64,000 nucleotides of DNA from Podarcis pityusensis (Eukaryota): assembly GCA_964106645.2 (NCBI GenBank), contig OZ067048.1. The stretch is one strand, 5' to 3'. Of this stretch, positions 548 through 26,849 are shown piece after piece. Made by a program: the position numbers and the translations under genes. The notes beneath the pieces are model-generated. The model was not told the origin of the DNA. It saw only the letters and a list, made by a program, of their open reading frames with translations, and did no database searches. Numbering within the stretch: position 1 is the first letter of the stretch; the number at the start of each line of letters is the position of its first letter.

Positions 548-641
548 TTTAAGTCCTTCCTTTTTCAAATCCTGAGCAAGGTCACTGCAAAGTTCTTGAC
601 ACAAGCTGTATTGTTCTGCAGCACTTATTTCATTAAATGTC
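548..641 (-). CDS. POLK: POLK exon 11 (start of PAD/little finger); gene continues beyond window start
   Basis: (R)TFNEISAAEQYSLCQELCSDLAQDLKKEGLK; 94 nt; ggcacacag / GTGGGT. Confidence 0.92.
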
Positions 642-837
642 CTGTGTGCCAAAAGAAAAGTGATCATAATCATAGCAATGACTAGTAATAGTCTATCCTC
701 AAATAGCATAGAGAAACTTGATCTTTTTTTACTGATCCATGTAGTAAAAATATTAAGGTTTAAGCTAAGCTGCAGTATACTTTCAGTATACTACTGAATA
801 ATAAAGGCTTAAGAATGAATGGAGTGTCTGAAATGAT

Positions 838-1071
838 GTTGGGTTGGATCCTGACTAAGGGTTGCATCCGGGACCTCCATACTGCTCATGCAACAGACTT
901 CTGTTTTTTGCAGTGGAACTTCCCCACTTTTTCTCCCCTGCACCCACAAAATCTGCTCCCAAGGGTTGGAGGACCCTCTGGAGCAGATGTTGGCACTATG
1001 CAGGGAAAGGAAAGGAAGGGGCGTGTTGTTGTATGAACAGAACATTGCTTCTGCAGCACTGAACACAACCC
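838..1071. repeat. Old palindromic MITE-like interspersed repeat; related copies near 2115-2560, 6420-6650 and 28015-28150
   Basis: Central fold-back AATCTGCTCC.AAGGGT...ACCCTCTGGAGCAGAT recurs at several places. Confidence 0.6.
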
Positions 1072-1783
1072 TAGTTTGCTCTCAGTCTCCTCTGAAATTA
1101 GTGGGAATCAAGTTAATAATGACTTAACAGTTTACAATGATTTCAGTGGGACCCAAGTACAACTCCATTGGCCTGGCTCCAACCCATTAGGGTAATTTTC
1201 TCTTGATTTTTTTTTTTAATCTTAAGAGATTTTGCACAATTATTCTCATAAGGCCTTATGAATCTTGTTTTATAAATGCTTGAACAGCTTAAGGAAAACT
1301 AAACTTCTGAGAGTTTTTTATTATTATTAAAATGTGATTCTAACATAATTGAGCATTTATCTATTGGAGACCTAGGCATTCTTCTGGAAGACTGTTCTTT
1401 CTACCAGATTAGAACTGCAAACCAAATGCTCGTTACTGTTTCAATAAAATAGAGGGAAACCAGCTCAATAAGTTTTCTTGGAACAGTAATGAGCATATTA
1501 TGTGGCATTACTAATCTTCAAAAAAAGATAGCTTTCAGTACAGTTCTCAGATTCCCTAATTGAAAAAGACTTGTTTATGCTAGAATCACATTTTTATCGC
1601 CAAATAAACAAAATTATTTTTCCTCAAGCAGAAGCAGCTCCACATTTTGTGTGGCAAGCATGTTAGTTCTATATGCCCTAGTGGGTTTTTAATCCTGCTC
1701 TTCCTCCCAAAAGGAGCTTGGCATTGCAAACAACAAAACAGTGAAATCAATACAAAGGTTCTAAAAGCCAATTGAGCACATAC

Positions 1784-1816
1784 CTTTCAGTGCTCATGCT
1801 TTTTCTTTCTCCATCC
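1784..1816 (-). CDS. POLK: POLK exon 10 (33-nt small exon)
   Basis: (R)DGERKSMSTE(R); ttttctttttaaag / GTATGT; phases match exons 9 and 11. Confidence 0.93.
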
Positions 1817-2209
1817 CTTTAAAAAGAAAAAAAGAAGTGTAAGTGTCCAGGTGCGTTTATTTAACATTTATATATAATGATTTATCACCATTATTACAAA
1901 TATACAGAACCCCACGTGTCGTTCCCCCCCCCCAAAAAAAAAATTATAATCACTATATCTGGCTGTGACCCAACAGGAATAAAAACATCTGTAATTTAAG
2001 TTTCACCAGTTTTGGTAAGTTGTCAGTTTCATAGTGCTCTTGAAAATGCACTTAGAAGAGCACAATAAAATTGAAAACATACGAAGACTCACCAGCTAAG
2101 CTTTGTTCATTGAAAGATGCTGGGCAGAATTCAACACTGTGTAAGCAGAAATCACCATCCTCTCCCCTACTCTGCAGCCCCTTGCATGTACCCAATATTT
2201 GCTCCAGAG

Positions 2210-2428
2210 CATGGGTAGACAAACTAAGGCCCAGGGGCCGGATCCAGCCAATCGCCTTCTAAATCTGGCTCGCAGACAGTGTGGGAATCAGTGTGTTTTT
2301 ACATGAGTAGATTGTACCCTTTTATTTAAAATGCATCTCTGGGTTATTTGTGGGGCCTGACTGATGTTTTTAACAAGCTCTGAGGGACAGTGGACCGGCC
2401 CCCTGCTGAAAAAGTTTGTTGACCCCTA
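2210..2428. mobile_element. hAT MITE nested in an older palindromic element
   Basis: Imperfect TIR CATGGGTAGACAAACT / AGTTTGTTGACCCCTA; perfect 8-bp TSD CTCCAGAG. Confidence 0.82.
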
Positions 2429-2770
2429 CTCCAGAGGGTCTCCCAACCCTCTGGAGCAGATTTTGTGGCTGCAGGGGAGCAGGGAGGAGGAGAGGGAAAG
2501 TCCCACTAAACAAGTGGTAATCTGTTCTGCTTGTGCATGGACAGCATTGGACACAACCCACTATTTAAAAAAGATATAAGTGTATGTTGCTATTTTACAG
2601 TTAAGGATCTTAAGCAGGGCTGTGAAAGACTTCAAGCTCAAGAATACTGTGGGAACGGTTAGAGGAAACATATTATTGACTTGGCTTTGTTCCTTTTATG
2701 TAACAATGTTACAAGCTAACAAAAAATTTGAAAGCATCTAAAATGAACACAACCCATTCACACAAAATAC

Positions 2771-2937
2771 CTTTCTAAATGGGTGGAACCCAAACCAAGG
2801 GAGATTTCCAAGAAATTACGCCAAGATGTTTCAGAGAAGAGAAGAGAAATTAGTGCCCTCTGCTGGTAAAGTTCTGAACAAGTCACAATGTTCAGAGCTT
2901 TAAGCATTTTTTCTGTTACTTTTCCTATGCCAGGCAC
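2771..2937 (-). CDS. POLK: POLK exon 9 (thumb, HhH)
   Basis: VPGIGKVTEKMLKALNIVTCSELYQQRALISLLFSETSWRNFLEISLGLGSTHLE+AG; 167 nt; ctcttccag / GTATTT. Confidence 0.96.
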
Positions 2938-3695
2938 CTGGAAGAGAGTTAATGCACACTAATAAAACAATGAACTTCCAGGAAAACAATTAAACCATAG
3001 TTTACAAACATTTCCTTTGGAAGTGAGAATATTCATCAGTCATAGTTATTTCCAGTGATTAAAGGTGGACAAGGTTCTGAGATTTGGAGCACTTAACATA
3101 AATTAGAAAAGGGCAACATGTGCTTAATTCATTAACTTAAAACGTAACTTTTTTAAAAATAAAAATGAATAATTATATGGCCCTGTTGAGTTCTGTCCAT
3201 GGCTGGTGAACCTATTACATTCTTCTGCATTGACATTTGGACAATCTCCAATGTTCAATGAATTAGAAGAGAGGCCACCAACCTTTTTGGATCCGTGGGC
3301 ACATTTTGCATTTTAAGAAGGTAGTGTAGGCACCAGTCACAACATGGTTGCCATGGGGTGTGGCATAACACAAAACTAGTGAGCACATTCATTGCTGCTT
3401 CATGCCCTCCCTCCTCTTGAACAACCGCCTGCACCCAGTAACTTTTGTTCTGATTACACAATATGGATTTCACACACACACGTTTTTGCTGCTAACAACA
3501 TTCCCAAGTACCAGAAAAGATATACAAGGTGGCCACACCAAACTAACTCCCTCTCGCACTGACACACAGACCACAAATACATACATCCGTCTGTTTCTCA
3601 CACATAGATGCAGACATCACTCTTCCTCCCTCCCTCCCTCTTACACTCACAGAGACACAGAGACCACACACACATACAGACTGAACATATATGAA

Positions 3696-3932
3696 CATGG
3701 GGGTGCAGGGGGGCAGCTCTCCCCCCAAAAATCAAGTAAACAAATAAAAATAATTAAAAGTATAAAATTGTAGAAAGATTTTGACAGATCTTTCTGAGCA
3801 CTTGTGATTAAAAGAAAGTAATTAAAAAAAACCTGTATTTGAGACATCGCATTCTGAATCTGCTAGACTGAGCCAGACAGGATGATGACAGGTGGGTGTC
3901 CTGCCCCCCCCTAAATCCTGGCTACGCCCATG
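3696..3932. mobile_element. hAT-like MITE
   Basis: CATGGG...GCTACGCCCATG termini; degenerate 8-bp flanks TATATGAA / TACATGCA. Confidence 0.55.
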
Positions 3933-4053
3933 TACATGCAGACCTCATCCCCTTTCTTTCTCTCTCACACACAGAGCACACATCACAAACTTCCTCCTTA
4001 GTCTCACACATGTACAGACTACAGATACACACACACACACATGTATTTACATA

Positions 4054-4245
4054 CAGTGGTACCTTGGGTTACATATGCTTCAGGTTACAGACTCCGCTAA
4101 CCAGGATGAGAACAGAAATCGTGCTCTGGTGGCGCGGCGGCAGCAGGAGGCCCTATTAGCTAAAGTGGTGCTTCAGGTTAAGAACAGTTTCAGGTTAAGA
4201 ATGGACCTCCAGAACAAATTAAGTACTTAACCCGAGGTACCACTG
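4054..4245 (+). mobile_element. Tc1/mariner (Tigger/pogo-like) MITE
   Basis: TIR CAGTGGTACCT...AGGTACCACTG; TA on both sides. Confidence 0.88.
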
Positions 4246-4255
4246 TACTTGCCTT

Positions 4256-4271
4256 CTCTCTCTCTCTCACT

Positions 4272-4298
<27 letters not shown>
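4256..4298. repeat. (CT)n(CA)n microsatellite
   Basis: Direct reading. Confidence 0.9.
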
Positions 4299-4302
<4 letters not shown>

Positions 4303-5286
4303 TCAGGAACGCCCATCTACTGAGTGGACAGGACAATTTCTATCACTCCTACCCGCCACTTAAATTAAAAATTTTAAGCCACTCTGCAGGGATAAGCAAT
4401 TGCCTGTTACCAGCTCCATGTGGCTGGTGGGCAAGATATTGCTGATGAGGAATCCCCGCCATTCCTTTTCTCCCCTCTCCCCTTGTTGAAAAAACCCTCT
4501 GGGGGCTAAGCAACTGCCTGCTCCACTTGGCTGGTGAGATAATATTCCTTGAGCAAACAGGATGATGCTCACTGCTCCTTCTCTCCTCACCCCAAGACTT
4601 TGCTGAAGGAATCTCTGTGGGGCTAAAGCAACTGCACACTGCAACCTTGATGTGGCTAGCAGGCAAAAAACCACTGAGCAAAGAGAGCAATCCCTGTTAC
4701 TGCTCCCAAACTCTGAGGGGGAAAAAAGCTCTCTGTAGGGCTAACTGCTCTCTGCCTGCTCCACAAATAGCCATTGTTTCTTCTGCCACCACTCCCTCCC
4801 TCCCTCCCACAATCAATAAAGCCACTCCACAGACTGAAACAAAGAGAAGCAATTTAATTTACAGACACCCCAGGTTGCTTCAGAGACCCCAAAAAGGCCT
4901 TCAAAGATCCTGCAGTGGTGACCCCTGAGCTAGAAGATAGAAGATTCAGCTGAACTGTAAAACGTGCATTCAGATAGTTAAGAAATTTTATGCTTTATAA
5001 AATGCATACGTTCTACTGTGTTCCAACTCCAGCATAATTCCAAGAGCAATATTAATATCAGTGCTTAAATTGAAAGGGGAAAAAAGAGGTTTCAGGGCTA
5101 CAGCTTTCTGGAAGTTGAATATTTTATAGAAGCCCTTGATCTCTGTACCTTTATTGGGGCCAGCTTCTTCAGACTGAACATTAAGCAAAAACAAATGAAC
5201 AGACAGCTTGGGGGAGACACACACACAATGCTGTTGAGCTTAATGATAATAGCCCAAACTTCAGATTTTAGTAGACTACGCTAGTA

Positions 5287-5941
5287 CAGTGGTACCTTGG
5301 TTCTCAAACACCTTGGTACTCAAACACCATGGTTCTCAAATGTCGAAAACCCGGAAGTAAGTGTTCCGGTTTTCAAACGTTTTTCAGAAGCCAAACGTCT
5401 GATGAAGCTGTCAGCTGTTGTTTCCAGGGCACCTGCACCAATCAGAAGCTGTGCCTTGGTTTTCGAACATTTCAGAAGTCAAACAGACTTCCGGAATGGA
5501 TTAAGTTTGGCGCTTTTGTTTTTGCTATTTTGCGTTTTTGTTGGTTAATTTGTTTTTGTGACTGTGTGGAACCCAGTTTAGCTACTGACTGATTGGTTGA
5601 TTATGTGACTGTGGAAATGGATAAAAGCTCCCCATCGAAACAATGACTATTGTCAGTGCAGGTAAAAAATAATAATAATTTTAATTTTTATCATCTACAA
5701 TACTGTCTTATTTAATTTATAGTACAGTACATTGATTATTGCTTTCATTTTATGGATCAATGGTCATGTTGATAGTAAAATTAATGTTAAATTGCTGTTT
5801 TAGAGGTTGTTTTTAAAAGTCTGGAATGTATTAATCCGTTTTGCATTACTTTCTTTGGGAAAGTGTGCCTTGGTTTCAGAGCGCTTTGGTTTTGGAATGG
5901 ACTTCCGGAACAGATTAAGTTTGAGAACCAAGGTACTACTG
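5287..5941 (+). mobile_element. Longer Tigger-like non-autonomous element
   Basis: TIR CAGTGGTACCTTGGTTCTCAAAC / GTTTGAGAACCAAGGTACTACTG; TA TSD; internal repeat of the subterminal GACTTCCGGAA..GATTAAGTTTG motif. Confidence 0.88.
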
Positions 5942-8090
5942 TACATATATCTGATGACGGCACCCAGCATGGTCATGCAAATTGTAGGGCCCACCAAAGC
6001 CCACTGACATCACTTTTTCTTTTTTTCAGGGATGTTATAGGGAAGATTATGTGGGTGGCTGCAGGCTCAGCCTGTGCTTTGCAGCACACTTCCATATAAA
6101 GAATAAGGAAAAGGAACTTGCCCACTGCTGTTGGGGAGGGGGTAGGCACAAGGGAGTCCACAACTCAGTCTGCCTAGAGCCCTCTCAAACCTGTTAGCAT
6201 ACCCTCCAACATTTCAGATGAAAACAGACACATTCCACATGCAAGGTTTATTTTGCAAGCTGCATCCCTCTGCTATGAGCACATTGCAGAAGGCTCTTAA
6301 ATGCTTGCAGTGTTCATTTGCTCTGCACATTTTTATCCTCCACTGAAGACAAGAGGATGATTGTTACTTTGGTTACAGTTGTACTAGGAAAACATAATGG
6401 GTTGGAAACAGAGAAACACATTTGGAAGGAGGAGAGCAGGTGATTTTCCTGTCCTTCCTCTTAAGCAGTCCTCCAAAGCCTTGCAGCACATTCACTAAAT
6501 ATTTGTTCACCTCATTTTTCAGTGATTCCCCCAGGCCACTTGTGTTACAGCCCCTGAAAACAGCTTTTCAGGGGTGTTGGGACAGGGTGGTGGTGGCTGG
6601 AACAGAAAGAGGTGCAGAAAAAGACATGGGCATTTATTTCTCTGGAGCCAACCTATTACATTAGCAAAAGCACTGCACTGCATAATGTTTTAGTATTCCA
6701 TGTGTATGCTTTCTGTGCCCTTAAAAATATCTATTTCCAATTTTGGGGATTTAACTTCTAGAGACTTGGGGGAGGGAGCTAAATCATGAAGAATGACAAC
6801 ACGAGTACCTCCCACTCACATTTTAACATTTTTGCATATGTGCCAAATGCAGAAAAGGATCTGAGGTCACATCAAAACTACTGGGGCAAAAAACAACAAT
6901 AATGCAGCTCTCTCTTTGGCAGCAGTTACTCTAAAACTAATCGGGAACACAAAAGTCCTTTGTAAGGTAGAGAGCAAAGGCAAAGAAAAAGTGGTAATCT
7001 TTATATTAGCAAAATCAAAGTTTAATATAGCACATTGGGATAGAATAACCAGAAGCCAAACTAGATAGTATTACATGCTGGCAGAAAGCATATTTAATAA
7101 ATTTCACCTATATGCAAAGTTATTTCACAGTTTGATCACTTTGTAACTTTTTGGCTGATCACATAAAAGGTATTATAGCTAGCCATACCTGATTCTTGTT
7201 GTTTTGAGCTACCCCAAATGTTTGTCTTATTTCATATTTCTCAGATTTTTATAGCACTTCCTAGCAAAATACTCAATGCAGTTTTTGAAAAGTCTAAGTT
7301 CATAAACAACAGAACCATCATGAAACAACAAAATGAAAATATTAACAGCTCTGATTTTCTTGGTTCATGCTCTGGATAGAGAAAAGAATATAACATACAG
7401 ATCAAATTATTAAATTAAAAAAGGGTCCTCAAAATCACAGGTCAACATCACAGCAAGTAAGAGGAATCTTACTCTTTGGAAGATATAAGAGTATTAGTCA
7501 CACTGTGATGTTACAGCATAGCATTTCAGTGTCCAAGTGTAAATTATTACTTAAATTTCAGACCCAGTATATTGTGTTCTTCATCTCCAGTGATGTTATG
7601 AGGACCAAGAGTTTCCCAAGGCATTTACTATATTGTTCACCAAATAGTAACAGAAAACACTACGGGTGTTCGTCACATTTTCCCAGCAGGATCCACACAG
7701 GCATCTTCAGTATATTCCTGATGTGGGAAGTCCTCAGCCAAAAAAGATCTAACAAGAAGCCATGGATGGCACACATGCCCCATAGAAACTGAGAAGTTTT
7801 GTATGTTCACTCAAACTTTGGCCTAAACCTTCACTTGCTCAAGTCCAATACAACAAATGGAAAGGGATACAAAAATTAAATGTTATCAGTGTATTTTGGG
7901 AGCATCCATTCCCTACTCCCAGAAAGCATTCAATTTTACAACAAAATGCACACAGTTTTATATGGGAGTTCATACTTCATTAAAGTATAAAATAGTAAAT
8001 GGTTAAATTTAGATGCAAAGAGGGTTTAAGACAGTAAACAAGTCTACCAGCAGTAATAAGGAACACTGAGTAATAAATAAATCAGCTCAC

Positions 8091-8215
8091 CTTTCTAATG
8101 GCTAAATCTTTGATAAAGTTCATCACAGCTTCTCTTTCTGGGGGGATTCTATATTGACCATTCGGTTTATTTTTATCACTGCACATTTTTGCTAACATAG
8201 TATTTGGAGCAATGC
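8091..8215 (-). CDS. POLK: POLK exon 8
   Basis: (G)IAPNTMLAKMCSDKNKPNGQYRIPPEREAVMNFIKDLAIRK; 125 nt; ttgcttag / GTGAGC. Confidence 0.96.
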
Positions 8216-9048
8216 CTAAGCAAGCAAACAAACAACAAACGTCAAACAAATATGAAACGCCAACCTGCTACTTCTGCTCCTAATGATTTTAGAAATAGTT
8301 ATGATGAGGTTTGTGTAGTAAACAATATTCATTTTGTTTTCGGTTGAATTTGTTTTTAAATATATATGCAGATCCTAACAAGTTTGACTGTAACAGGTCC
8401 TACGGAATTAAATATGTATGCTGCCGTTCATCCAAAGACTATTGAGCAGTTCACAACGTAAGAAAACATAACTGCAATTTTTTCTGCTGTTATTGTAAAG
8501 TCTCTGGACTAAAACTTTCCTACCCACACCCAGCAACACACAAGAATGTGAAAGGAACAGAAAGAAGAACATTAATATATGGCTCCCAACCACCTTAATC
8601 TGGCCTTGAACAGTGTTAATAGGTTGTTGAAGTGTGTGTCAGAGGTGCAGCATATGCTACCACCACTTGGGGCAGGCGCACAGTGCATGCCCCTGAGAGC
8701 ACCAGGGTGGAGAGGGAGCCTGCTGTGGCTTGCCTTGCAAAGTAGCGCAGAGGGTGCACTTGCATGCTGTAGCCCAGCCAGGCGAGGACAGGGGGCAAAG
8801 CTGCCACCAATTCTCATCTTCTTCGCTCCTGGGTCCAGCCTGACCTGGAAATGGAGCTGCGGCTGGCTGACAGCGTTGGGTCATTATGCGAGGAAGCCGT
8901 CTCTACAACTACCTCGCGTGCCGGAGTCAGGCTATGATGCACAAACCTGTCATGGTTGTGCCTGGTCATGACCCCTCAAAAAAATGTGCCCCGGGCCGTG
9001 GCCTCCCCAACCACTCCACTATACCACATTGTATGCCATTACAAAGTA

Positions 9049-9404
9049 AAGGTAAAGGTAAAGGGACCCCTGACCATTAGGTCCAGTCATGGCCGACTCT
9101 GGGGTTGCGGCGCTCATCTCGCTTTATTGGCCGAGGGAGCCAGCGTACAGCTTCAAGGTCATGTGGCCAGCATGACTAAGCTGCTTCTGGCGAACCAGAG
9201 CAGCGCACGGAAACGCCGTTTACCTTCCTGCCGGAGCGGTACCTATTTATCTACTTGCACTTTGACGTCCTTTCAAATTGCTAGGTTGGCAGGAGCTGGG
9301 ACCGAGCAACGGGAGCTCACCCCGTCGCGGGGATTCGAACCACTGACCTTCCAATCGGCAAGTCCTAGCCTCTGTGGTTTAACCCACAGCGCCACCCGCG
9401 TCCC
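9049..9404 (-). mobile_element. Sauria SINE, full length
   Basis: (ACCTTT)n tail at left, tRNA-like head with B-box (GGTTCGAATCC on minus) at right; TSD CCATTACA(A/G)AGTA at 9036-9048 and 9406-9418. Confidence 0.9.
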
Positions 9405-9688
9405 TCCATTACAGAGTAGACCAAGTTTAATAGCAAGGCTTTTATGTTGTTGGTTAAAGCTTGAAGAGTTCAGAACTTTCATTTATTGAGGTTGAGCACA
9501 TGACTCTGATACAGCAGTTTTAGCAAGTTGTTATGTTTAGGTCAGTTAATTTTTTCTGTAAAAAGAACCTGTGCATTTCTTCACATAACAAGGATCTTGT
9601 GAATCTACTTTTAAACTCTTGAGATGTACTGGAGAAGTATTACAGAACTTTAAAATATTTGTAATAATATAAATATAAATTTGTTTAC

Positions 9689-9940
9689 CAGCACTGGCAG
9701 TAAGTCTTGTTTTTTGTTCAATCCTAAAGCGAATTTCCTCCACCACTTCCTCAGCTGATGCTCCAAAGACAACTGGCTTTATCTGAGTTGTTGACTGTTG
9801 GTGTTGTTGTTCTAGGTGCAGCAGAGAAGGGTGAACAATCTGCTTATACATCAGAGTATCAACATCAAACAAGACTGGTGAACAGTCATGTGTATCTTCA
9901 CTCAAATTTGATTAATCACGTGTTGCTATATTCTGCTTGC
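9689..9940 (-). CDS. POLK: POLK exon 7 (5' boundary uncertain; in-frame TAA at 9912-9914 if the 9940 or 9925 start is used)
   Basis: ...NLSEDTHDCSPVLFD...VVFGASAEEVVEEIRFRIEQKTRLTASA+G; donor G|GTAAAC is clear; phase-compatible acceptors give exon starts at 9940, 9925, 9895 or 9874. Confidence 0.8.
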
Positions 9941-11671
9941 CTCAGAATAAAAAGGGTCAGAAGCTATCAGAATTCTATAAGCAAAACTAATCTCATTTGC
10001 TAGTTCCCTTACACAAAAAGTAAATGCCACCTTCCTTTTCCCTCCATTTTCCAAGCTCTTGTAAATATTTTTTACAAACAGGACAAAAAATTCTCATTGT
10101 TATTACTGTACTGCTAATTACCCCAAGGCTGGAAAAACCAAGTCCTGCTACTGCCCAAACAAAGGAGTACTGTATGTTTACTGCATTTAAATGAGCAACA
10201 TAAAAAATTGCATGGATTAAAACTGTGTACATTTACATAGATAATACTTCTTTAGATTTTTTTAAAAAAACCCTTTCAGCATTTACTTCTTATATGGTAT
10301 TAGTCACTTTCAGTTCAGGTTCACAATGGGATTCACTCTAAGCCCACATATCAAAAAGCATCATCATGCATCTGTATGGTACTTTCTCTAGGAAAACCAT
10401 GCTCAAAGTGGCTCACAAAAACACTGGAATGGTTTACATAATAACATGTTTCTCAACTGTTTTGACCAGTTTACCTGTTGTAAGAAAACTTTGTAAAGAA
10501 TTGATTGAGTACCTGCTCATCAGTTATAACTGAAGCTGTTGGGCAACATGATACATTGTATACAGTTGGAGTGTCACCCTGGTAATTATTAAACACTTGA
10601 TTGATGCTCATCAGCTGCTTAGCATAAGCAAGAATGCAGTGAGGAAATAACCTATTCTGAATGAATTATGCCACCAACTGAAATGAAATGGGGAATCTCG
10701 CGCAGAACAGCATAAAGAATTCACTTGGAATTCCAGACTGTGACATCATGATCCATAGCTTACTACTTGTCTCAACTTTGATAAGAAGTTCATAGGGCAA
10801 TGTGGGGCCTGACAGCTGCAGCACTGTGAAGAGAAGCATGTGAGCAACTTGCTCCAATGAAATCTAGGACTGGACTGAAGCTTTGTATTCCTCCAGTGCC
10901 AGGTTTACCTCTCCCAGACTCTGCTCCTTCGCTGAGGAATGTAATATCTTGAAGGAGAAGACCTTTGGCCTGTAGCCTAATATTTCCCATTCTCTCAGCC
11001 AATTCCCTACAGGTTCAATGACTGTGTTGACAGGTCAAAATGGGGATGTGCAAAGTCCCTAGTGTGGAGATGGATGTTTCCTAAGGAACAAAAGCTTCAA
11101 GGGTACAGAGTCACTCTGGAAATTCCAGTTCAAAGGGCTGTGACTCAAAGTATCACAGTCCAATACTCCCAGGTCTGGTCATGGTGCTGGGGCCTGTATC
11201 AGTTTCCAGTATCTCCTCCTCCTGCTGCTGCTGGTCTTATTAATCTGGCCAGGCCTTCCACATCTGAACAGAAGTCAGAGCCCAGACAGCTGCTCTGGAT
11301 GGGGGTTGTGACATTTGCTTCTATGCAGTGTTCACTTGGGTGCCAACACTGTTTTGAAAAAGTGATACCCTGAAAATTAGCACCATGAGACTTGTCGGCA
11401 AACTATTGCTCTTTTAACGATGGCTGCAACTCCCCACTTCTGAAAACATTAATTCCACTAAGTTTAATTACAATTGCAATATTAAAAAGGAAACTTCACT
11501 AGTGATTTCCTAAAGTGTTTCAACTAAATTGCTTCGAGATTAGCATTACATGCAAGCAGCTAATAATTACAACTAATATTTAGCCACATGATTTCCTGAC
11601 TTAGCAAGTCATAATATATAAAAGCAAGGTAAAATGTTCTTTTGGTCTGGCAGTTCCAGATAATTGCTTAC

Positions 11672-11825
11672 CATTTAGCGCAGAGTTGTATGTTTTGATG
11701 AAATGCTGCCTTTTGTCTTCAGGCCAGTTCTTTCTTTCTTCTAAGTACTCTGTTATGTTCAAGTAGGCTTCATCAAGCCCCATGGGCATAAAGTGGGAAT
11801 CATATTCAGCAAGTATTTCCCTAAC
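11672..11825 (-). CDS. POLK: POLK exon 6 (catalytic DE motif)
   Basis: VREILAEYDSHFMPMGLDEAYLNITEYLEERKNWPEDKRQHFIKTYNSALN+G; 154 nt; donor G|GTAAGC. Confidence 0.95.
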
Positions 11826-12471
11826 CTTGGTAAATATAATTTAAAAAAATGTAAAGTTGTGCTGCTATAGCAAAAAACAATTTTTTTAAAAAATCATTTG
11901 AAGTACCATGCATTCAGTCAATACCAACACTGTATCATTCATTCTTTTAAAATTCCATTATGATTGATCAATACTAGAAGAATTTTAAATCATAAATAAT
12001 TTATTGACTTTCCAAATTTGTACTGCATATGGTTCACAGTTAGAGCAACCTCGCTAGAAATAAATGTAAAGTTATTTACTCAGATGTGTGAATGTAATTA
12101 TTTTACTGTGTGTGAACCTCTTTTTAAGATGAGATTTATATACCAAAGATAAAGTGACAGATACTGGTTGATCTTTGCTACTTGCAAAATCAAAACGATT
12201 TTTCTTAAAATTTAAAGGAAGAAAATGGTTTCCTCACATTTAAAGAGAGAATAGGGGTATGTTAAGTAAGCATCCATTTCTTCTCAGAGTTTATATAGGT
12301 TGACAGAAAAGAATGCTAATCTCAAATGAGAATGCCATTCAATACAACATTATTAGGAGGTGCTAATTGAGGAAATAAATTTCCTTATCTTAAGGCTAGG
12401 TCTGTTAGAAGGAATTCATCCAATCATGAAGAGGGAAGAAGTACCTTTCCTCCTCCTTCCCACCAAACTAT

Positions 12472-12856
12472 AAGGTAAAGGGTAGGTAAAGGACCCCTGG
12501 ATGGTTAAGTCCAGTCAACGGAGACTATGAGGTGTGGCACTCATCTCACTTCAGGTCAAGGGAGCTGGTGTTTGTCCACAGACAGCTTTCCAGGTCATGT
12601 GGCCAGTATGACAAAACTGCTTCTGGTGCAATGGGACACGATGATGAGTGACAGAGAGCACAGAAACGCCATTTAACTTCCCGCCACAGCAGTACCTATT
12701 TATCTACTTGCACTGGTATGCTTTCGACCTTCAATGATAGAAGCTGGGACGGAGCAACAGGAGCTCACCACCATCATGTGGATTTGAACCTTTGGCCTTC
12801 CGATTGGCAAGCCCAAGAGGCTCAGTAGTTTAGATCACAGCGACACCCGCATGTGC
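12472..12856 (-). mobile_element. Sauria SINE, more diverged subfamily
   Basis: Homologous to the 9049 copy; TSD CCCACCAAACTAT at 12459-12471 and 12857-12869. Confidence 0.88.
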
Positions 12857-13130
12857 CCCACCAAACTATTATATTTATCAAACTATAAAGGCATTTTTAA
12901 CACTTTACTTTTTCAGAACAAACTTAATAAATTAAAACATGAAGCTTAACAATCACCATTTGCATTTCAAGGAATACGTGTAACAAAATAAAATCAGCAA
13001 GGCTGATATCCTAACCATATCTACTCAGAAGCAAGTCCCACTGAATTGAATGGGGCTTATTCCTGGGTAAGTGGGGTTAGGATTGCACTCTAAATCTATG
13101 TGCATTCTGCTGTGGGAAGAAATTACGTAC

Positions 13131-13262
13131 CTCTTTACTTACTTCTTCATATTTCTTAAAGTTTAATGGCACTATAGTAAGATGTGGGCAGAGTTTCTTG
13201 GCAATAAACCCAGGCATGGCTGCACGTACCCCAAATCTTCTGGCATGATAATTTGAAGTGGA
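13131..13262 (-). CDS. POLK: POLK exon 5
   Basis: STSNYHARRFGVRAAMPGFIAKKLCPHLTIVPLNFKKYEEVSKE; 132 nt; ttttaag / GTACGT. Confidence 0.96.
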
Positions 13263-14314
13263 CTTAAAAAGACAAGACATACTTTAAAATCATGCACTGA
13301 AGCCATTTTAAATGGCTTGTACATTGCGGTCAGAATACAGTAACTAATTAGGTATGCTGGGTGGAATCTACACATATATTTTTAAAAAGCTGTGAAAATA
13401 TATTTTTTTAAATGTTTTGAAAAATTCATTGATTTTTGCATAGCTCACTTTCACCATCTAGTGTCACATTAATATACTGCACTTTACCACACATTTAAAA
13501 CGTCTTATTTGCAGCTGTATAGCTGAGTCCCTGGGCAAATGTAGAATCACCAAAATCAGTGCAAAAGAAAAAAGATGGCCAATTGCAGCTGACCTGGAGA
13601 TCTAACTAAGCATTTTTAGAAATATTCTGTTAGTATCTTAGGATCTGGCCTAGGTAAGTTCAACTCCATAAATGCAACAGTTTCAACCAGTAGTTCAATA
13701 TAAGCTCAAAGGAGGCGAGTTTACCTACAGATACCAATATATTGAGCCAGTATGGGAAACCTCATTCCTGAGTGCCAAATGTGGTCCTCCATGCCGCTCT
13801 GTTTGGCTCTCAGACTACTCCCCAGGCCACACTCCTCACAGAATCTATTTTGCACCTTTAGTATTTTGGCCTGGATAAAATGTGCCCTTGAACATGCCTC
13901 TTGCTTGTTCAGCTGGAGGACTAACAGGAGCATGTGGCTTTGTATAGAAACTAGCCCACCATATAAAGGTAAAAGTGACATTTGTTGCTCTGCCCACTTT
14001 TGCTGCTGGCCCCACCCACAAATGTCTTGTGGCCTTTGGAAGGTTACCCAGAAAGATTTGTAGTACTCAGGCTGAAAAAGGGTTCCCCTGATGCAGTTAG
14101 ACTGTTTGACTATGGCTATATACACACTCTTGTTTATTATGCATTCAGCGTACTCCCACCACCGGTTTGCCAAAATCTGCAAAATCCACACCTATCCTGT
14201 ATCTGTCTTTTCGTTCCTTAGGAAACACTGTGTTTTGATGTGTTTTCCCCCAAAACCAGCAGCAGTCCAAATTGAGAAAAAGAGTGACTTACCTAGCTAT
14301 GTTTTAAGCCAGTA

Positions 14315-14495
14315 TTATGTACACTGCCAGGTTCAAATCCCCACCCGCCATGAATCTCACTGGGTGTCCTTAGGCCAGTCACTATCTCTTGCCTAACTTA
14401 CTCTACTGGGTTTTCATGAAAATAAATGGTGGTGAGAGAACCATGCATGATACCTTAAACTTACTGAGGGAAAATGTGAGATTAAAATGTAATAA
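14315..14495 (+). mobile_element. Old tRNA/CORE-type SINE (Squam3/MIR-like)
   Basis: B-box GGTTCAAATCCC followed by CTGGGTGTCCTTAGGCCAGTCAC core-like segment. Confidence 0.55.
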
Positions 14496-14627
14496 ACAAA
14501 CAAACATAGTTTTCTGAACTAACTTTTTAGCTTGAATATCTCTTTACCACAAGTTTAGAAACAAGCTACTTGGAAATATCGGGCGGTGTGGGGAGAGAAT
14601 TGTAGCAAATGTTATATTCCACCTTAC

Positions 14628-14780
14628 CAGCATACTCATTGACCCCACTGCTATGGGCTTGTCCCTCAATTCAGGATTGTCTCTCAGTTCAACAGCTGCA
14701 TAAAAGGCATCCATGTCAATGTGTACAATGGTACAGCTAAGATCACGGCTCTGATCTAACTTCATTGCAAGCTTATCCAT
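14628..14780 (-). CDS. POLK: POLK exon 4 (Y-family motif I)
   Basis: [51 protein letters not shown], with the catalytic HIDMDAFY motif; 153 nt; AG/GTAAGG. Confidence 0.97.
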
Positions 14781-15586
14781 CTGCACATAAGTAAATATAT
14801 ACCATTAGATAGAATTAGATAAATTTTCTTGTGGCATACAATGATTCTTATCAATATAACACTCTAAAGGAAAGTAATATAATATACAGAGACAAATGGA
14901 AAAGATATTTCGGTAATCTAGCTGTGCGGGAAAACAGTATCTGATTTGGCCAAGACTATAAGAATAGCTTTGGCACTTTAGACGTTAACTATTTTAGGAG
15001 TGCTTTACAGCTTTACACACAAAGATAAACAATGTAAAGACATAATGGGCCTTGCTTCATGACCTCCCCATGCCATTACAAATCATTCAGTTTGCAATGA
15101 TGTGGAATAAATGACATTACAGCTTCTAATCAATGTCCCAAGTCACTGAGGTTTGTCTTACGAAGCAACCACCACATGGCTTCTATGCTACTTTTTGTTC
15201 GTTTATCGTGGCATGGGAAAATGGTGCACATACATATGGTAATTGTGGTACCAATCTTGCACTCTGTGTATGGGGAAAAGAAGGGCTCAGAGTAACTCAT
15301 ATGAAGCTCTAATATAAACTTAGTATGGCTATTTTATTTATTTAAGCAATTTATGTAATGCTTAACTACAATAGTCTCTAAGCAGTGTACAAGAAATACA
15401 GTACAGAACGGGGTGGTGGTTAAAACTTCATCTAAAATGCCTGCAGAAACAAAGAAGTCTGCAGTAGGTGGCAGAATTTCAACAGGAAGAGGACCTGTCT
15501 GACCTGAATGGGAAGGGAGTTCCACAACATTGGGCCCACAATACTACATGCATGGCTCCCTGTGAATATAAGCCATGCATCTGAAT

Positions 15587-15965
15587 TAGGCCTTGGCGGT
15601 GTATTGATACAACATCCAGGACCAGTATGAGGGGCAGACCATGATGGTGGCTTCACCTTACGGTATATTGGGGGTGAAACCGACGCCGCTTCTGAGTCCC
15701 TCTGCTACCAGTGCCGCTTTCAACATTGGGCCGCTGGTAGCAGAGGGACTCAGGAGCAGTGGTGGTTTTACCCGCGATCTTTAAACAGCTCCCAAACACC
15801 CAGCTGAGCGAGCCCCAATGCCTCAAGTGCAAGCTGGAGAGGTATGGGGCTTGCCCAGCTGGGGGGTGGGAGCCTTCCTGCCCCCCAAAAGAACCTTACA
15901 AAGAAGCTCCGAGGTCCTGCGGGTGAGCAGCAGGGACCCTGGGGCTTGCTCAGCTAAGGGGCGGG
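15587..15965 (+). mobile_element. Truncated relative of the 40621 hAT element
   Basis: Shares CCAGGACC(A/G)GTATGAGG.GCAGACCATGA and TAGCAGAGGGACTCAGGAGCAG blocks; right TIR not seen. Confidence 0.75.
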
Positions 15966-16653
15966 AACCCTCCTTTTCCTATCATGGACTTTGGGTGATT
16001 GGAAGATTTATACATAAATCTACTTGTTGATAATATACCTTATAACATATATTTAAAAACCAACAATATGAATATGAGCATAAGATCTTGAATATAATCA
16101 CAGGTACGGAATAGCTTTTGAAGTAAGGAAGAACAATAATATAAATTTCTCCCACAGTTTTTCTATTCTGTTTTCCTTTTAAACTACCAAATCATTATAT
16201 TAAATCCAATTCCAAAGTGCTCCCAGAATTGCATAATAAATAAAATTAAAGAACCTAAATTTGAATCTATTTTTTCTGTATCTAAACCACTGGTATTTAC
16301 AGATTTTTTTTCCTCAGTCATAATGGTCAAGATTGCTGGGAAGGTATGCACTGACCTCACTCCTCACTCCCACCATGACAAGAATAGAAATTCAACAATA
16401 GCTTCTGAGAGCATTAAAGCTGAAGGTTAGCAGACTTGAAAGACGAGTTGAGGCACTTCAGAAGTATGCACATTGAGTTTGGTCAAGAGATTGCTTCACA
16501 TATCATTCAGGTTTATCAAACAAGCTTTTATTTATTTAAGTGGTAATGCTTTGTCAAAAGTAATCTTAACTTCATGTTTACATAAGAGGCTAATACCATG
16601 GGTTGCCTAAAAATACTTTCCTCTCCTAAATGAATCAAGTTTATACATATTAC

Positions 16654-16773
16654 CTTTATCTGTGCTTTCATAAGCTGTTGGTCGGTTACTTTACTTTTTA
16701 ATTTCAGGATTTTTTCAATTCGCTCATTAACTTGTTGATCCTTCTTCAGCTCATTTTCATAAAATTTAGAACC
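16654..16773 (-). CDS. POLK: POLK exon 3
   Basis: GSKFYENELKKDQQVNERIEKILKLKSKVTDQQLMKAQIK; 120 nt; ttttgcag acceptor, GTAATA donor. Confidence 0.95.
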
Positions 16774-17531
16774 CTGCAAAATAGATTTAAATTATTTAAT
16801 ATCCATCATTAGCCTTATCTAGTCTAGTGCAGTTTGATATAATTCTTACATAATTATTTTTAAGTTATAGAGAACATTAAAAACACATTTTAAAAATTTA
16901 GTCAGCCCCAGTATTTGTTACACCAGCTTTCAGGATGCCAGACATCACAGCAGTTAGCAGCAAATGAAGGTGGAAGTGGAGTCACTCAATAAAAATTATA
17001 TGAAGATACACAGAGCACCAGCAAAAGACGCTGCCTGAATATTAATTTGCACACACATTTTGTTTGTGTGATGATGCATTATTTTTGATAAGCCACTGAG
17101 CAACATGGTAAAATGTTATAAATATTGCACTAGGCTAGCATAATGTTACCAAACACAACATTTCATAGGCATTGCAACATTACATCTGTGTTACATGCAC
17201 AATATTCAAAATTTGCACAGAAGGCAGCAATTTTAAAAAGCAATCAATTATTTGGCATCTCACACTGATTAGAAATAATTCAGCTTCATTTTAATTTACA
17301 GCGTGCCTAAAATTTGATAAGCACTGCACAGAGATTAAAGATGAGTCAGTACTTGCCTGCAGACATATTCTCTTAACACAGATACACATCCCCCCAAAAA
17401 ATGGATGTGGACGATACCTTGCCTTCTTCACTAAACAATAAAGCATGCTAGTAAAAACCCTACAGTTTTTATTGAATGTAGTCAATACCTGTGAATAGCT
17501 AAAGCATTTGTGAGAGTTTATACAAACAAAC

Positions 17532-17666
17532 CTTGGAAGCTTCCATTATGATTTTGTTGATCTTCTCCTTATCCAGCCCCTGCATTCCAGCTTTGTTATC
17601 ATTGAGGCCCAGTCTAAGCAGAAGTCCCTCTCTGGAAGAAGCATTGCCTTTATCTGCATTTTCCAT
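17532..17666 (-). CDS. POLK: POLK exon 2 (first coding exon; ATG at 17666; exon probably extends as 5'UTR to acceptor at 17702-17703)
   Basis: Encodes MENADKGNASSREGLLLRLGLNDNKAGMQGLDKEKINKIIMEASK (Pol kappa N-clasp); 135 coding nt; donor AAG|GTTTGT; acceptor tttgttttttttcag. Confidence 0.95.
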
Positions 17667-20982: not shown

Positions 20983-21036
20983 TAGTGCTAAAGGGGAAAT
21001 TATCCCCACAGCTCTTCATCTGTAAGCAGCCAAAGG

Positions 21037-21390
21037 AAAGGGAAAGGGAACCCTGACCGTTAGGTCCAGTCGCAGACGACTCTGGGGTTGCAGCACTCAT
21101 CTCGCTTTATTGGCCGAGGGAGCCGGCATACAGCTTCCGGGTCATGTGGCCAGCATGACTAAGCTGCTTCTGGCGAACCAGAGCAGCGCACAGAAACGGC
21201 GTTCCTTACCTTCCTACCTTTACCTCCTACCTTATCTACTTGCACTTTGACGTGCTTTCGAACTGCTAGGTGGGCAGGAGCAGGGACTGAGCAACGGGAG
21301 CTCACCCCGTGGTGGGGATTCAAACCGCCGACCTTCTGATCAGCAAGCCCTAGGCTCTGTGGTTTAGGCCAAAGCGCCACCTGCGTCCCA
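21037..21390 (-). mobile_element. Sauria SINE
   Basis: Homologous to the 9049 copy; TSD TAAGCAGCCAAAGG at 21023-21036 and 21391-21404. Confidence 0.9.
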
Positions 21391-23474: not shown

Positions 23475-24335
23475 CCCTTTCCTTTATATCTTAATCTACA
23501 TTATACTGTTGAATGTAGATTAAGATATAATGGGGAATGGGAAAACAGCTGGAGGAAATCAAATATACAGGTAGTTATTTTGGGGCAGGGGGTTGCTGCC
23601 TTTTATTGTTGATTACTAAGCTTTAATTATTACTGCATACGGTCTTGTGATTCTAGTATGTTTGCTGTCAGCCACCCCATGCGTGTTTATCGATAGGTGG
23701 CTATAATAAGTCTAATAAAGAACTTCGTGTCACTGGCTACCTGTGAAGAGGGCAGCGTATACCGCAAGATGCATTTTAGTTCCTTAAGGCTGGATGATTT
23801 TGCACACTCCCCCCAAAATGAGAAATTGCTTTTCCCTGCTCTAGCCTAGTCCAAAACCAAGCACATTTCTCATCCCCCCACAATTAGCAGCGCCACAAAA
23901 TGTCATGGTAAAATAAATAAAAATCTGAAATCGGCTTCTGCCACTTGGGAACGAACCATGGCAACAGAGGCGTCGCTGCCTGTCTCTTACGGAGCGAGCC
24001 TGCTGTGCATGTTTCCTCAGAAGTAACTATTTCTCCCACGTAGCTATTGCAAAGGACTGCAGTTTCCCTTTCCTTCGGTTTAAGCGTTGGTTATGCACAC
24101 ACTACATATGCACGGCTGCCCGGAGCCACTAAAACCCCCTATATGTGTTTATCTGCCTATATGTGGCTACACAGGCAGCTGCCCCATTGCTGAGAAGGAA
24201 CTCCTTCGCTTCCCTTCCCATATTTGTTTCTAAACGAGGTGTGGAGAGAAAAGTTCCCTTTCAGGGGAGGCGAGAAGAGCAATATAGCAGGCGAAGGGAA
24301 AGCAAAGCTCAGGTAGACACACCTCAGTCTCTCAC

Positions 24336-24440
24336 CAGCCCCCGCTTCCGCAACAATTAAGCCGCGCCAAGATGGCGACCACCCGAGGCTTTAGAAAAGA
24401 GAACGGACGACGGCCGGCGTCTTGAGAATCCCGCGCCCAA
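24336..24440 (-). other. POLK: Candidate non-coding POLK exon 1 (5'UTR); TSS not determinable
   Basis: Minus-strand donor CTG|GTGAGA at 24335 inside the CpG island; an alternative donor TCC|GTAAGA lies at 23990. Position inferred from the known head-to-head layout. Confidence 0.4.
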
Positions 24441-24705
24441 GAACTACAGCACCCAAGAAGCCCCGAGGAACGCGACGACTCGCTGGTTCCACCGACCCCG
24501 CCCCGTTTCCCAGAGGGCAGCGCGCCGCCAGAAAGCAACCCCTCAGCGGACTACACCTCCCAGCATGCCGTTACCCAAAAGCCTTCGCTGCCAGGGCGGG
24601 TAGGGCTTGGCGAATTATAGTGGCTGAGAGCGAGTTTCTCGAGTAAGATGGCGGCGGGAGCGGTGGCGGCGGCAGCAGCAGCAGCGTCGCTTTGAGGAAA
24701 GAGAC

Positions 24706-24724
24706 GAGAGAGAGAGAGAGAGAG
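24706..24724. repeat. (GA)n microsatellite in the probable CERT1 5'UTR
   Basis: Direct reading. Confidence 0.85.
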
Positions 24725-25009
24725 GCGAGCGCTCGCTCCGCGGCGTGGCTGCTTCAGATGGTCGGCACTATCTGCCAGCGTGCGCTGAGCGGGGTTGGGG
24801 GTTAAGTCGGGCGCTGCGGTCCCGGCGTCGGCCAGAAGGGGACAGGCAGAAGGGCTGGGGCGGCGTCGGCGACAGCAGCAGCAGCGAGAGCAGCGGCAGG
24901 AGCAACAGCGGAGCCTCGCGGAGAGAGGCGCCAGGCAGGTAGAGCGAGCTCCCGCGGCGGCCTCGTCGCTTCGCTGCCCGCTGGCAACGGCTGTGAGGGA
25001 GGCGCCTCC

Positions 25010-25105
25010 ATGTCGGACAACCAAAGCTGGAATTCCTCGGGCTCCGAAGAGGATCCCGAGACCGAGTCCGGGCCGCCTGTTGAGCTCTGCGGAGTCCTCA
25101 GCAAG
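25010..25105 (+). CDS. CERT1: CERT1 (COL4A3BP/GPBP/STARD11) coding exon 1
   Basis: [32 protein letters not shown]; 96 nt; donor AAG|GTAAGG. Confidence 0.97.
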
Positions 25106-26493
25106 GTAAGGAGATTCCTTCCTCTCGCCGCCACGGAGCGGTCGTGCTCGGCTTGGCTTTTCACCTGAGCTCCCCCCCCCCTTCGTCTCCTTCGTGGTCG
25201 ACGGGGGACATGCGGGGGGCGCCCCCTGCGGTAGGGTATCCGGTTGTGGGAGCCTGGCGCCGAGTCCCCCCTCTCCCCGCAATAACTGGCCACCTCGCCT
25301 GGTAGGGTGGCGGCCTAGGAGCCTCCTGCCCTCTTCCCCAGCTTGGAGGGAGGTCTCCGCACATCTCCTTCCCCGCCTCCCACTGGGTGTTGTGGCTTCT
25401 GTTTTTGTTATTATTCCGGTTTGGTGGTGGTGGTGTGTTAAAAAAAGGCTTCACCTCCGCAGTCTTGGAAACCATTTATCCGGGTAGAGGGGCGGATTGC
25501 TTAGTTTCAGAGCGAAGCCTTCGCCCTTTCTAGGTGGAAAATGTCTGTGAATGTCACTTTCTCTATTCCCCAGGAGTCCACCCGCCGCTGCCACCTTTCC
25601 TTGATGATCAAAGTATGAGTCTTGGTTTGAGGAAGGGTGACTTGGTAAAATAATATTCGTGCTCATTGGAGTGGGACTTTTATTATTTAATTTCTGTGTG
25701 TGTGTGCATGTGATGCAGCGGAGAAGGAAAAAAGATCAATCTGTTCCATCAGGTTCTTCTCAAGAGCCTGGTAATCCTGACTAGATTTCACTTGTAGCCA
25801 CAGCTTGGCTGAGTAATGCTGCCGAGGCAGCCTGTATGGGGAATCGCTCAGGGCGCTTCCACTCGTTGATTCTGTACGACTGGAAAAGCTAACTTCTTGG
25901 GCCTGCGAATCGAAACCTTACACGGTTTTCTCCCTCTTTTAAAAAAATGAAGGAAACAAAATCATGTGATATGCATGAACACATAACGCACAATTGTACC
26001 ACAGAGAAGAGTGGTGTGACCTTTGCTCTAAACAAGGCAGTAAAATAGACTGACTGGAGGGACAGTATAGGGAGAAAGTACAGGAGAAAGCAGCTGTATA
26101 CACAACTGGAGGACTTTAAGGCTTCAGTCCCTGTATTATTTCTAATTTTTAGCGTGAATCCTTTGCAGTTTTGCTATTTAGAAATTGCAAAGGAGTCATT
26201 ATTCAGACAGAAAGCTAAGTTTTTAAGCAAGACATCAAGTTTTAGCAATATGATTAAGCCCTTCAGAAACTGAATGGTAATTTTGCTTTTTGAAGCAGTT
26301 TCACTTGCACTATGCTTTTGACCCTGTTTTGTGTACTGAAGCAAGCAGTGAAAGCACAAGCTGTGAGATGCTCGAGTTGGAAAACGTTATTGCTGAAAAA
26401 GCTTTTGCAGTCCAGTTAGTTTTCACGTATTTATAGGGAAACTAAACATAAATTCCCAAGTATTGTCATTTCTGAATTAGAAGGTAGATAAAG

Positions 26494-26849
26494 GTAGAGG
26501 GTAAAGGGACCCCTGACCATTAGGTCCATTCATGACCGACTCAGGGGTTGCGGCGCTCATCTCGCTTTACTGACCAAGGGAGCTGGCGTACAGCTTCCGG
26601 GTCATGTGGCCAGCATGACTAAGCCACTTCTGGCGAACCAGAGCAGAGCACAGAAACGCCGTTTACCTTCCCGCCAGAGCAGTACCTATTTATCTACTTG
26701 CACTTTGACGTGCTTTCGAACTGCTAGGTTGGCAAGAGCAGGGACCGAGCAACGGGAGCTCACACCGTCGTGGGGATTCGAACCGCCGAACTTCTGACTG
26801 GCAAGTCCTAGGCTCTGTGGTTTAACCCACAGCACCATCCGCGTCCCGG
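26494..26849 (-). mobile_element. Sauria SINE
   Basis: Homologous to the 9049 copy; TSD TAGAAGGTAGATAAAG at 26478-26493 and 26850-26865. Confidence 0.9.

Follow-up and report, generated by a model that had tools for sequence, protein, structure and literature searches.

The gene for DNA polymerase kappa (POLK) of Podarcis pityusensis contains an in-frame TAA stop codon in what used to be the 5' part of its exon 7, and the combined evidence makes it very likely that splicing shifted, with the frame preserved, to an internal acceptor of this exon, at position 9811, that the leftover part of the exon then decayed neutrally, and that POLK is intact. The case is one of an ordinary alternative 3' splice site becoming fixed, not of a broken gene. 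Throughout, the window denotes the entire stretch of 64,000 nucleotides of DNA that was analysed; positions are counted from its first letter, and POLK is encoded on its minus strand.

The visible coding span of POLK, 548..17666 on the minus strand, comprises the first ten coding exons (17666-17532, 16773-16654, 14780-14628, 13262-13131, 11825-11672, 9811-9689, 8215-8091, 2937-2771, 1816-1784 and 641-548); four more lie past the start of the window. With the acceptor at 9811, the ten visible exons form 412 open codons separated by nine GT-AG introns, and the product is identical at all 412 positions to the Pol kappa of Podarcis lilfordi (P0014) and at 409 of 412 to four other lacertid records. 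The nine visible exons other than exon 7, described as intact in the initial annotation, are indeed open, with GT-AG borders. Residues 413-805 are matched outside the window (L002) in four stretches that contain no stops. None of the 14 matched coding stretches contains a stop, and their similarity to annotated lacertid proteins is 95-100%. The frame is open across the whole gene and, to judge from the sequence, POLK is thus intact. Exon 7 has a single match in the genome, so that there is no second copy to account for the TAA. Elsewhere in the window, four copies of an interspersed repeat of approximately 360 nt that are 68-90% alike (9040-9404, 12469-12850, 21032-21389 and 26489-26847) probably represent what we take to be a lizard SINE, and the GC content reaches 0.57 at 24001-26000, compared to about 0.38 around it, presumably marking a CpG-island promoter of POLK, which in other vertebrates is shared with the head-to-head gene CERT1.

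Exon 6 (11672..11825, minus strand) encodes the catalytic DE motif and ends in phase 1, with the donor at 11671. Under the present splicing, it is followed by an exon 7 of 123 nt and phase 1-1 (9689..9811, minus strand), the same as in 15 of the 15 lacertid records. The in-phase acceptors listed for this exon in the initial annotation are correct as far as they go, but the list omits the one at 9811, which is found when every minus-strand AG is tabulated and is located 129 nt downstream of 9940. The acceptor in use (9812..9831, minus strand) consists of a pyrimidine tract and TAG, formed by what were once codons for Pro-Ser-Leu-Leu-His-Leu. The ancestral acceptor (9941..9960, minus strand) ends in GAG and is located where other squamate proteins have their long-form junction; no use of it is seen. 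These two sites, with exon starts at 9811 and 9940, each have 14 pyrimidines in the 17-nt tract, the corresponding numbers being 5 for 9925, 8 for 9895 and 10 for 9874. The base at -3 is T at 9811 and G at 9940, and the nine POLK acceptors in use all lack G at this position. The available part of PMC3095350 gives the order of preference at acceptor -3 as C, T, A, G, with GAG acceptors seldom used. When the exon 6 donor is read through (11664-11672, minus strand), it encodes Gly-Lys-Gln, which is also how the ancestral exon 7 begins (9932-9940, minus strand); this coincidence stretches tblastn matches beyond the true exon 6 donor, and the Varanus record P0033 seems to run into the exon 6 donor region.

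The junction is present in contigs from three runs, X15, X16 and X18, which represent three organisms from three studies, all of them relatives and about 3-4% divergent from the window in the intron where measured; the status of these runs as RNA is a tool's guess that is backed by the spliced contigs. In X16 and X18, the contigs connect 11672 with 9811 over a GT-AG intron of 1860 nt (depths 20.5 and 35.9), and in X15 the 9811 junction is represented by a loose end that equals the exon 6 end (depth 25.2). The contigs of each of the three runs join exon 6 to exon 7 and continue into exon 8 sequence; skipping of the whole of exon 7 is rejected, given that this exon is present in all three. No joints from 11672 to 9940, 9925, 9895 or 9874 are found in the contigs of X15, X16 and X18, nor is any junction that would include the 129 nt; contigs lose rare variants, such that minor use of 9940, 9895 or 9874 would escape them. 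Two raw RNA runs, X23 and X24, yielded 0 reads on the locus from about 12% of each run. Rescue by an in-phase downstream acceptor, the third option offered in the initial annotation, is accordingly what the contigs display, although the site employed is the strong one at 9811 and not the weak ones at 9895 and 9874 that had been named. Those two are in phase and give open frames, as had been claimed. Stop-codon read-through and selenocysteine were set aside, the codon being TAA and spliced out.

The 129 nt between the two acceptors (9812..9940, minus strand; 43 codons), which have passed from the 5' part of exon 7 to the 3' end of intron 6, are by their sequence similarity to coding regions an ancestral piece of exon, in agreement with the initial annotation. 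The 42 full codons of the segment, 9938-9813, specify 28 of 42 residues identical to those of the Rhineura Pol kappa, with no frameshift, and 25-28 of 42 matching residues in anguimorph, cordylid and snake proteins; the sequence past the TAA aligns with human Pol kappa 240-311 (E 6e-10). The TAA (9912..9914, minus strand) lies within this segment. Translation in the phase set by exon 6 bears out the earlier observation that it is in frame from both 9940 and 9925: it is the first stop encountered from either acceptor, at amino acid 241 and 236, respectively, and from 9938 to 9813 this frame contains no other. The ancestral codon at this site was likely GAA, for glutamate, the residue that occupies the position in the Rhineura, Elgaria, Candoia and Pituophis proteins. 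In a relative-rate test with 13 outgroups, the abandoned segment does not exceed the working segment of Rhineura in divergence, which, together with the lack of frameshifts, suggests that it stayed coding through most of the lacertid stem. On these comparisons, the loss of coding constraint on the segment is either recent or partial.

Contigs covering 9640-10040 in X2 (depth 10), X8 (depth 104) and X15 (depth 5.9) agree with the TAA; X2 is perhaps close to the source of the window, and X8 and X15 derive from other organisms and studies. In X16 (organism G), a single contig of depth 3.5 reads GAA at 9912-9914. A sense codon at this site, suggested in the initial annotation as the mark of an assembly error, thus occurs in one run, with TAA in the other three of the four. 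The X16 contig also carries TAG at 9933..9935 (minus strand), where the window has CAG; this may be a separate stop, but with one contig of depth 3.5 an error is possible. Four other differences are located near the TAA codon in X16, and four other letters differ within 9688-9811. The Arg codon two places before the TAA site is replaced in X16 by one for Cys, the residue of Elgaria and Varanus, which argues that the X16 letters are real. Over the segment, organism G differs from the window at 5 of 129 sites (3.9%; one silent, two missense and two touching stops), compared to 42 of 1031 sites in the intron (4.1%) and 1 of 156 in exon 6 (0.6%); the segment does not differ significantly from exon 6 (Fisher p 0.09). 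Because organism G splices at 9811 despite having a sense codon at 9914, the TAA would not have caused the shift, and it appears likely that the splice shift came first and the stops afterwards.

The following scenario appears to account for these observations. Pyrimidine-rich codons followed by CTA GAA inside exon 7 would have formed a latent acceptor that might already have served as an alternative site before lacertids, amphisbaenians and iguanians diverged. This inner acceptor would have become the main site in lacertids, where the weak GAG of the old one probably helped. The skipped segment then would have lost coding constraint and gained stops, different ones in different lineages, and any rare long transcript is predicted to be a target of nonsense-mediated decay. 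This pathway acts when the distance from a stop to the next junction downstream exceeds about 50 nt; for the TAA it is 223 nt.

This distance would also suit a regulatory alternative, which we consider highly improbable, namely, that the old acceptor is a regulated poison site, where the 129 nt are included in some transcripts that are then degraded, tuning the dose of the polymerase. Neither the segment nor the old acceptor has acquired indels, different stops apparently occur in two lineages, and low-depth contigs extend over the segment in two of the three RNA contig runs, all of which would fit such a function. However, those contigs continue unspliced for 57 and 90 nt beyond 9940, and hence represent intron or DNA rather than a long isoform; other parts of intron 6 are covered by similar low-depth contigs, no joint to 9940 was found in the contigs, and the divergence of the segment is intron-like (3.9% versus 4.1%, from one low-depth contig). 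A recent null or hypomorphic allele of POLK, the second option in the initial annotation, would be a natural reading of a TAA in frame from 9940 and 9925, but merits next to no credence given that the main transcript splices past the TAA, leaving the stop outside the spliced exon, that 14 of 14 matched coding stretches are open, and that the TAA is common to three other runs. The first option, a base-call or assembly error at the TAA, to which the sense codon of X16 (one of four runs) might seem to point, is refuted by the recurrence of the TAA in X8 and X15, with X2 in agreement and X16 being a more distant organism, and its probability is negligible.

Under the frame-preserving shift to 9811, the change in the protein is probably confined to a flexible part of the palm. 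By alignment, the removed codons correspond approximately to residues 230-271 of human Pol kappa, in the disordered palm insertion, as recognized in the initial annotation; according to the available part of PMC8526622, residues 225-281 are missing from the cryo-EM model, with 225 and 281 close together. Since these two residues are near each other, the approximately 20 leftover loop residues should span the gap easily. Lacertid Pol kappa, as predicted from the gene sequence, likely lacks just 43 residues of a disordered loop. The short form matches the Pfam IMS profile completely (1-148/148, 158 bits, versus 157 bits for the long form), and in P0014, a short form, IMS, IMS_HHH and IMS_C all score above the Pfam cut-offs. 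The alignment of the short form with human Pol kappa (E 1.8e-273) includes one long gap, in the insertion. The catalytic acidic residues (human D107, D198 and E199, the roles of which are described in the available part of PMC8526622) are aligned at the same positions in P0014, a protein that shows no differences from the window product over 412 residues. AlphaFold2 runs with 24-row alignments gave poor folds for both forms (mean pLDDT 43.9 for the short form, P0014, and 45.6 for the long form, P0024).

For comparison across reptiles, 202 protein records were gathered, and we determined the spacing between the DE motif and the conserved helix that follows it. These records are gene predictions that are not independent within a species, isoform use is known from annotation alone, and part of the sample consists of the best 120 of 1113 matches to a long-form query, so that short forms elsewhere might be under-sampled. 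The spacing is 60 in all 15 lacertid records (Zootoca, Lacerta and three Podarcis) and 61 in all nine agamid records (eight from Pogona and one from Phrynocephalus; P0104, P0137 and P0158-P0164). Rhineura has 58 in one of four records and 101 in the other three, and Anolis carolinensis has 61 in two, 81 in two and 102 in seven of 11. In the remaining 154 records with both motifs, the spacing is 79-105, after nine of 163 were dropped as partial records without a motif. The long spacing is seen in all sampled geckos, tuatara, turtles, crocodilians, birds and mammals, indicating that the long exon is the ancestral state. Two records, Sphaerodactylus P0175 (spacing 79) and Micrurus P0194 (92), have partly shortened loops, suggesting other inner splice sites nearby. 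The turtle records P0048 (1354 residues) and P0062 (1327 residues) also contain ankyrin-type Pfam families and probably are read-through models fused to the next gene.

In Rhineura, Anolis and agamids, the short junction coincides with 9811, and the middle form of Anolis corresponds to 9874. According to annotation, Rhineura (58/101) and A. carolinensis (61/81/102) use both the long-form and the inner acceptor. Unlike in agamids, the long exon is retained in Anolis and Sceloporus records, A. carolinensis having short isoforms as well. Splicing downstream of the TAA, which the initial annotation envisaged for all squamates, thus holds for the lacertid and agamid records, whereas most other squamate records have the long exon. 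In the squamate tree, lacertids are placed beside amphisbaenians, and agamids within iguanians. The plainest reading of these sequences is that an old alternative acceptor was fixed separately in lacertids and agamids. A parallel switch of the same latent acceptor in the two groups, deleting the same Pol kappa loop, appears probable; that this parallel loss was selected or regulatory is unlikely. If it was driven by selection, lizards would have their own means of tuning an error-prone polymerase, in the form of the short loop or of a long isoform coupled to decay. In either case, the lizards offer a natural series of exon shrinkage, from long (most amniotes) through both forms (Rhineura and Anolis) to short (lacertids and agamids) and then to stops, and the lacertid and agamid proteins are natural deletion variants for probing the role of the Pol kappa 225-281 loop. 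On the practical side, POLK would be miscalled as broken by gene-loss screens in which the long exons of orthologues are projected onto lizard genomes.

We found no report of the POLK splice shift in lizards in open-licence PMC articles and bioRxiv, supplements aside, and the available parts of PMC6181923 and PMC3250501 contain nothing on it. The short gene model itself is already in public lacertid records: the models XP_034955387.1, XP_028605113.2 and CAI5787407.1 have the same junction and the same 805-residue product class, and their names and sequences make no mention of the leftover segment. Like other vertebrate Pol kappas of the Y family (human PDB 7nv0 and 2oh2), the lacertid protein aligns in all blocks of the catalytic core; unlike most amniote Pol kappa records found, it has a palm insertion that is shorter by about 41-43 residues. 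Alternative 3' splice-site exons arise from constitutive exons, according to the available part of Koren, Lev-Maor and Ast 2007 (PMC1876488), and POLK resembles the cases described there in having a rival acceptor inside an ancestral constitutive exon and an in-between stretch whose length of 129 nt is divisible by three, but differs from them in that the inner site appears fixed and the in-between stretch has gained stops. As in intronization and acceptor displacement (e.g., PMC2586383, PMC2740785 and PMC5010894), a change in splice signals turns coding sequence into intron; in contrast, no new intron arises in POLK, and an existing intron lengthens at its 3' end.
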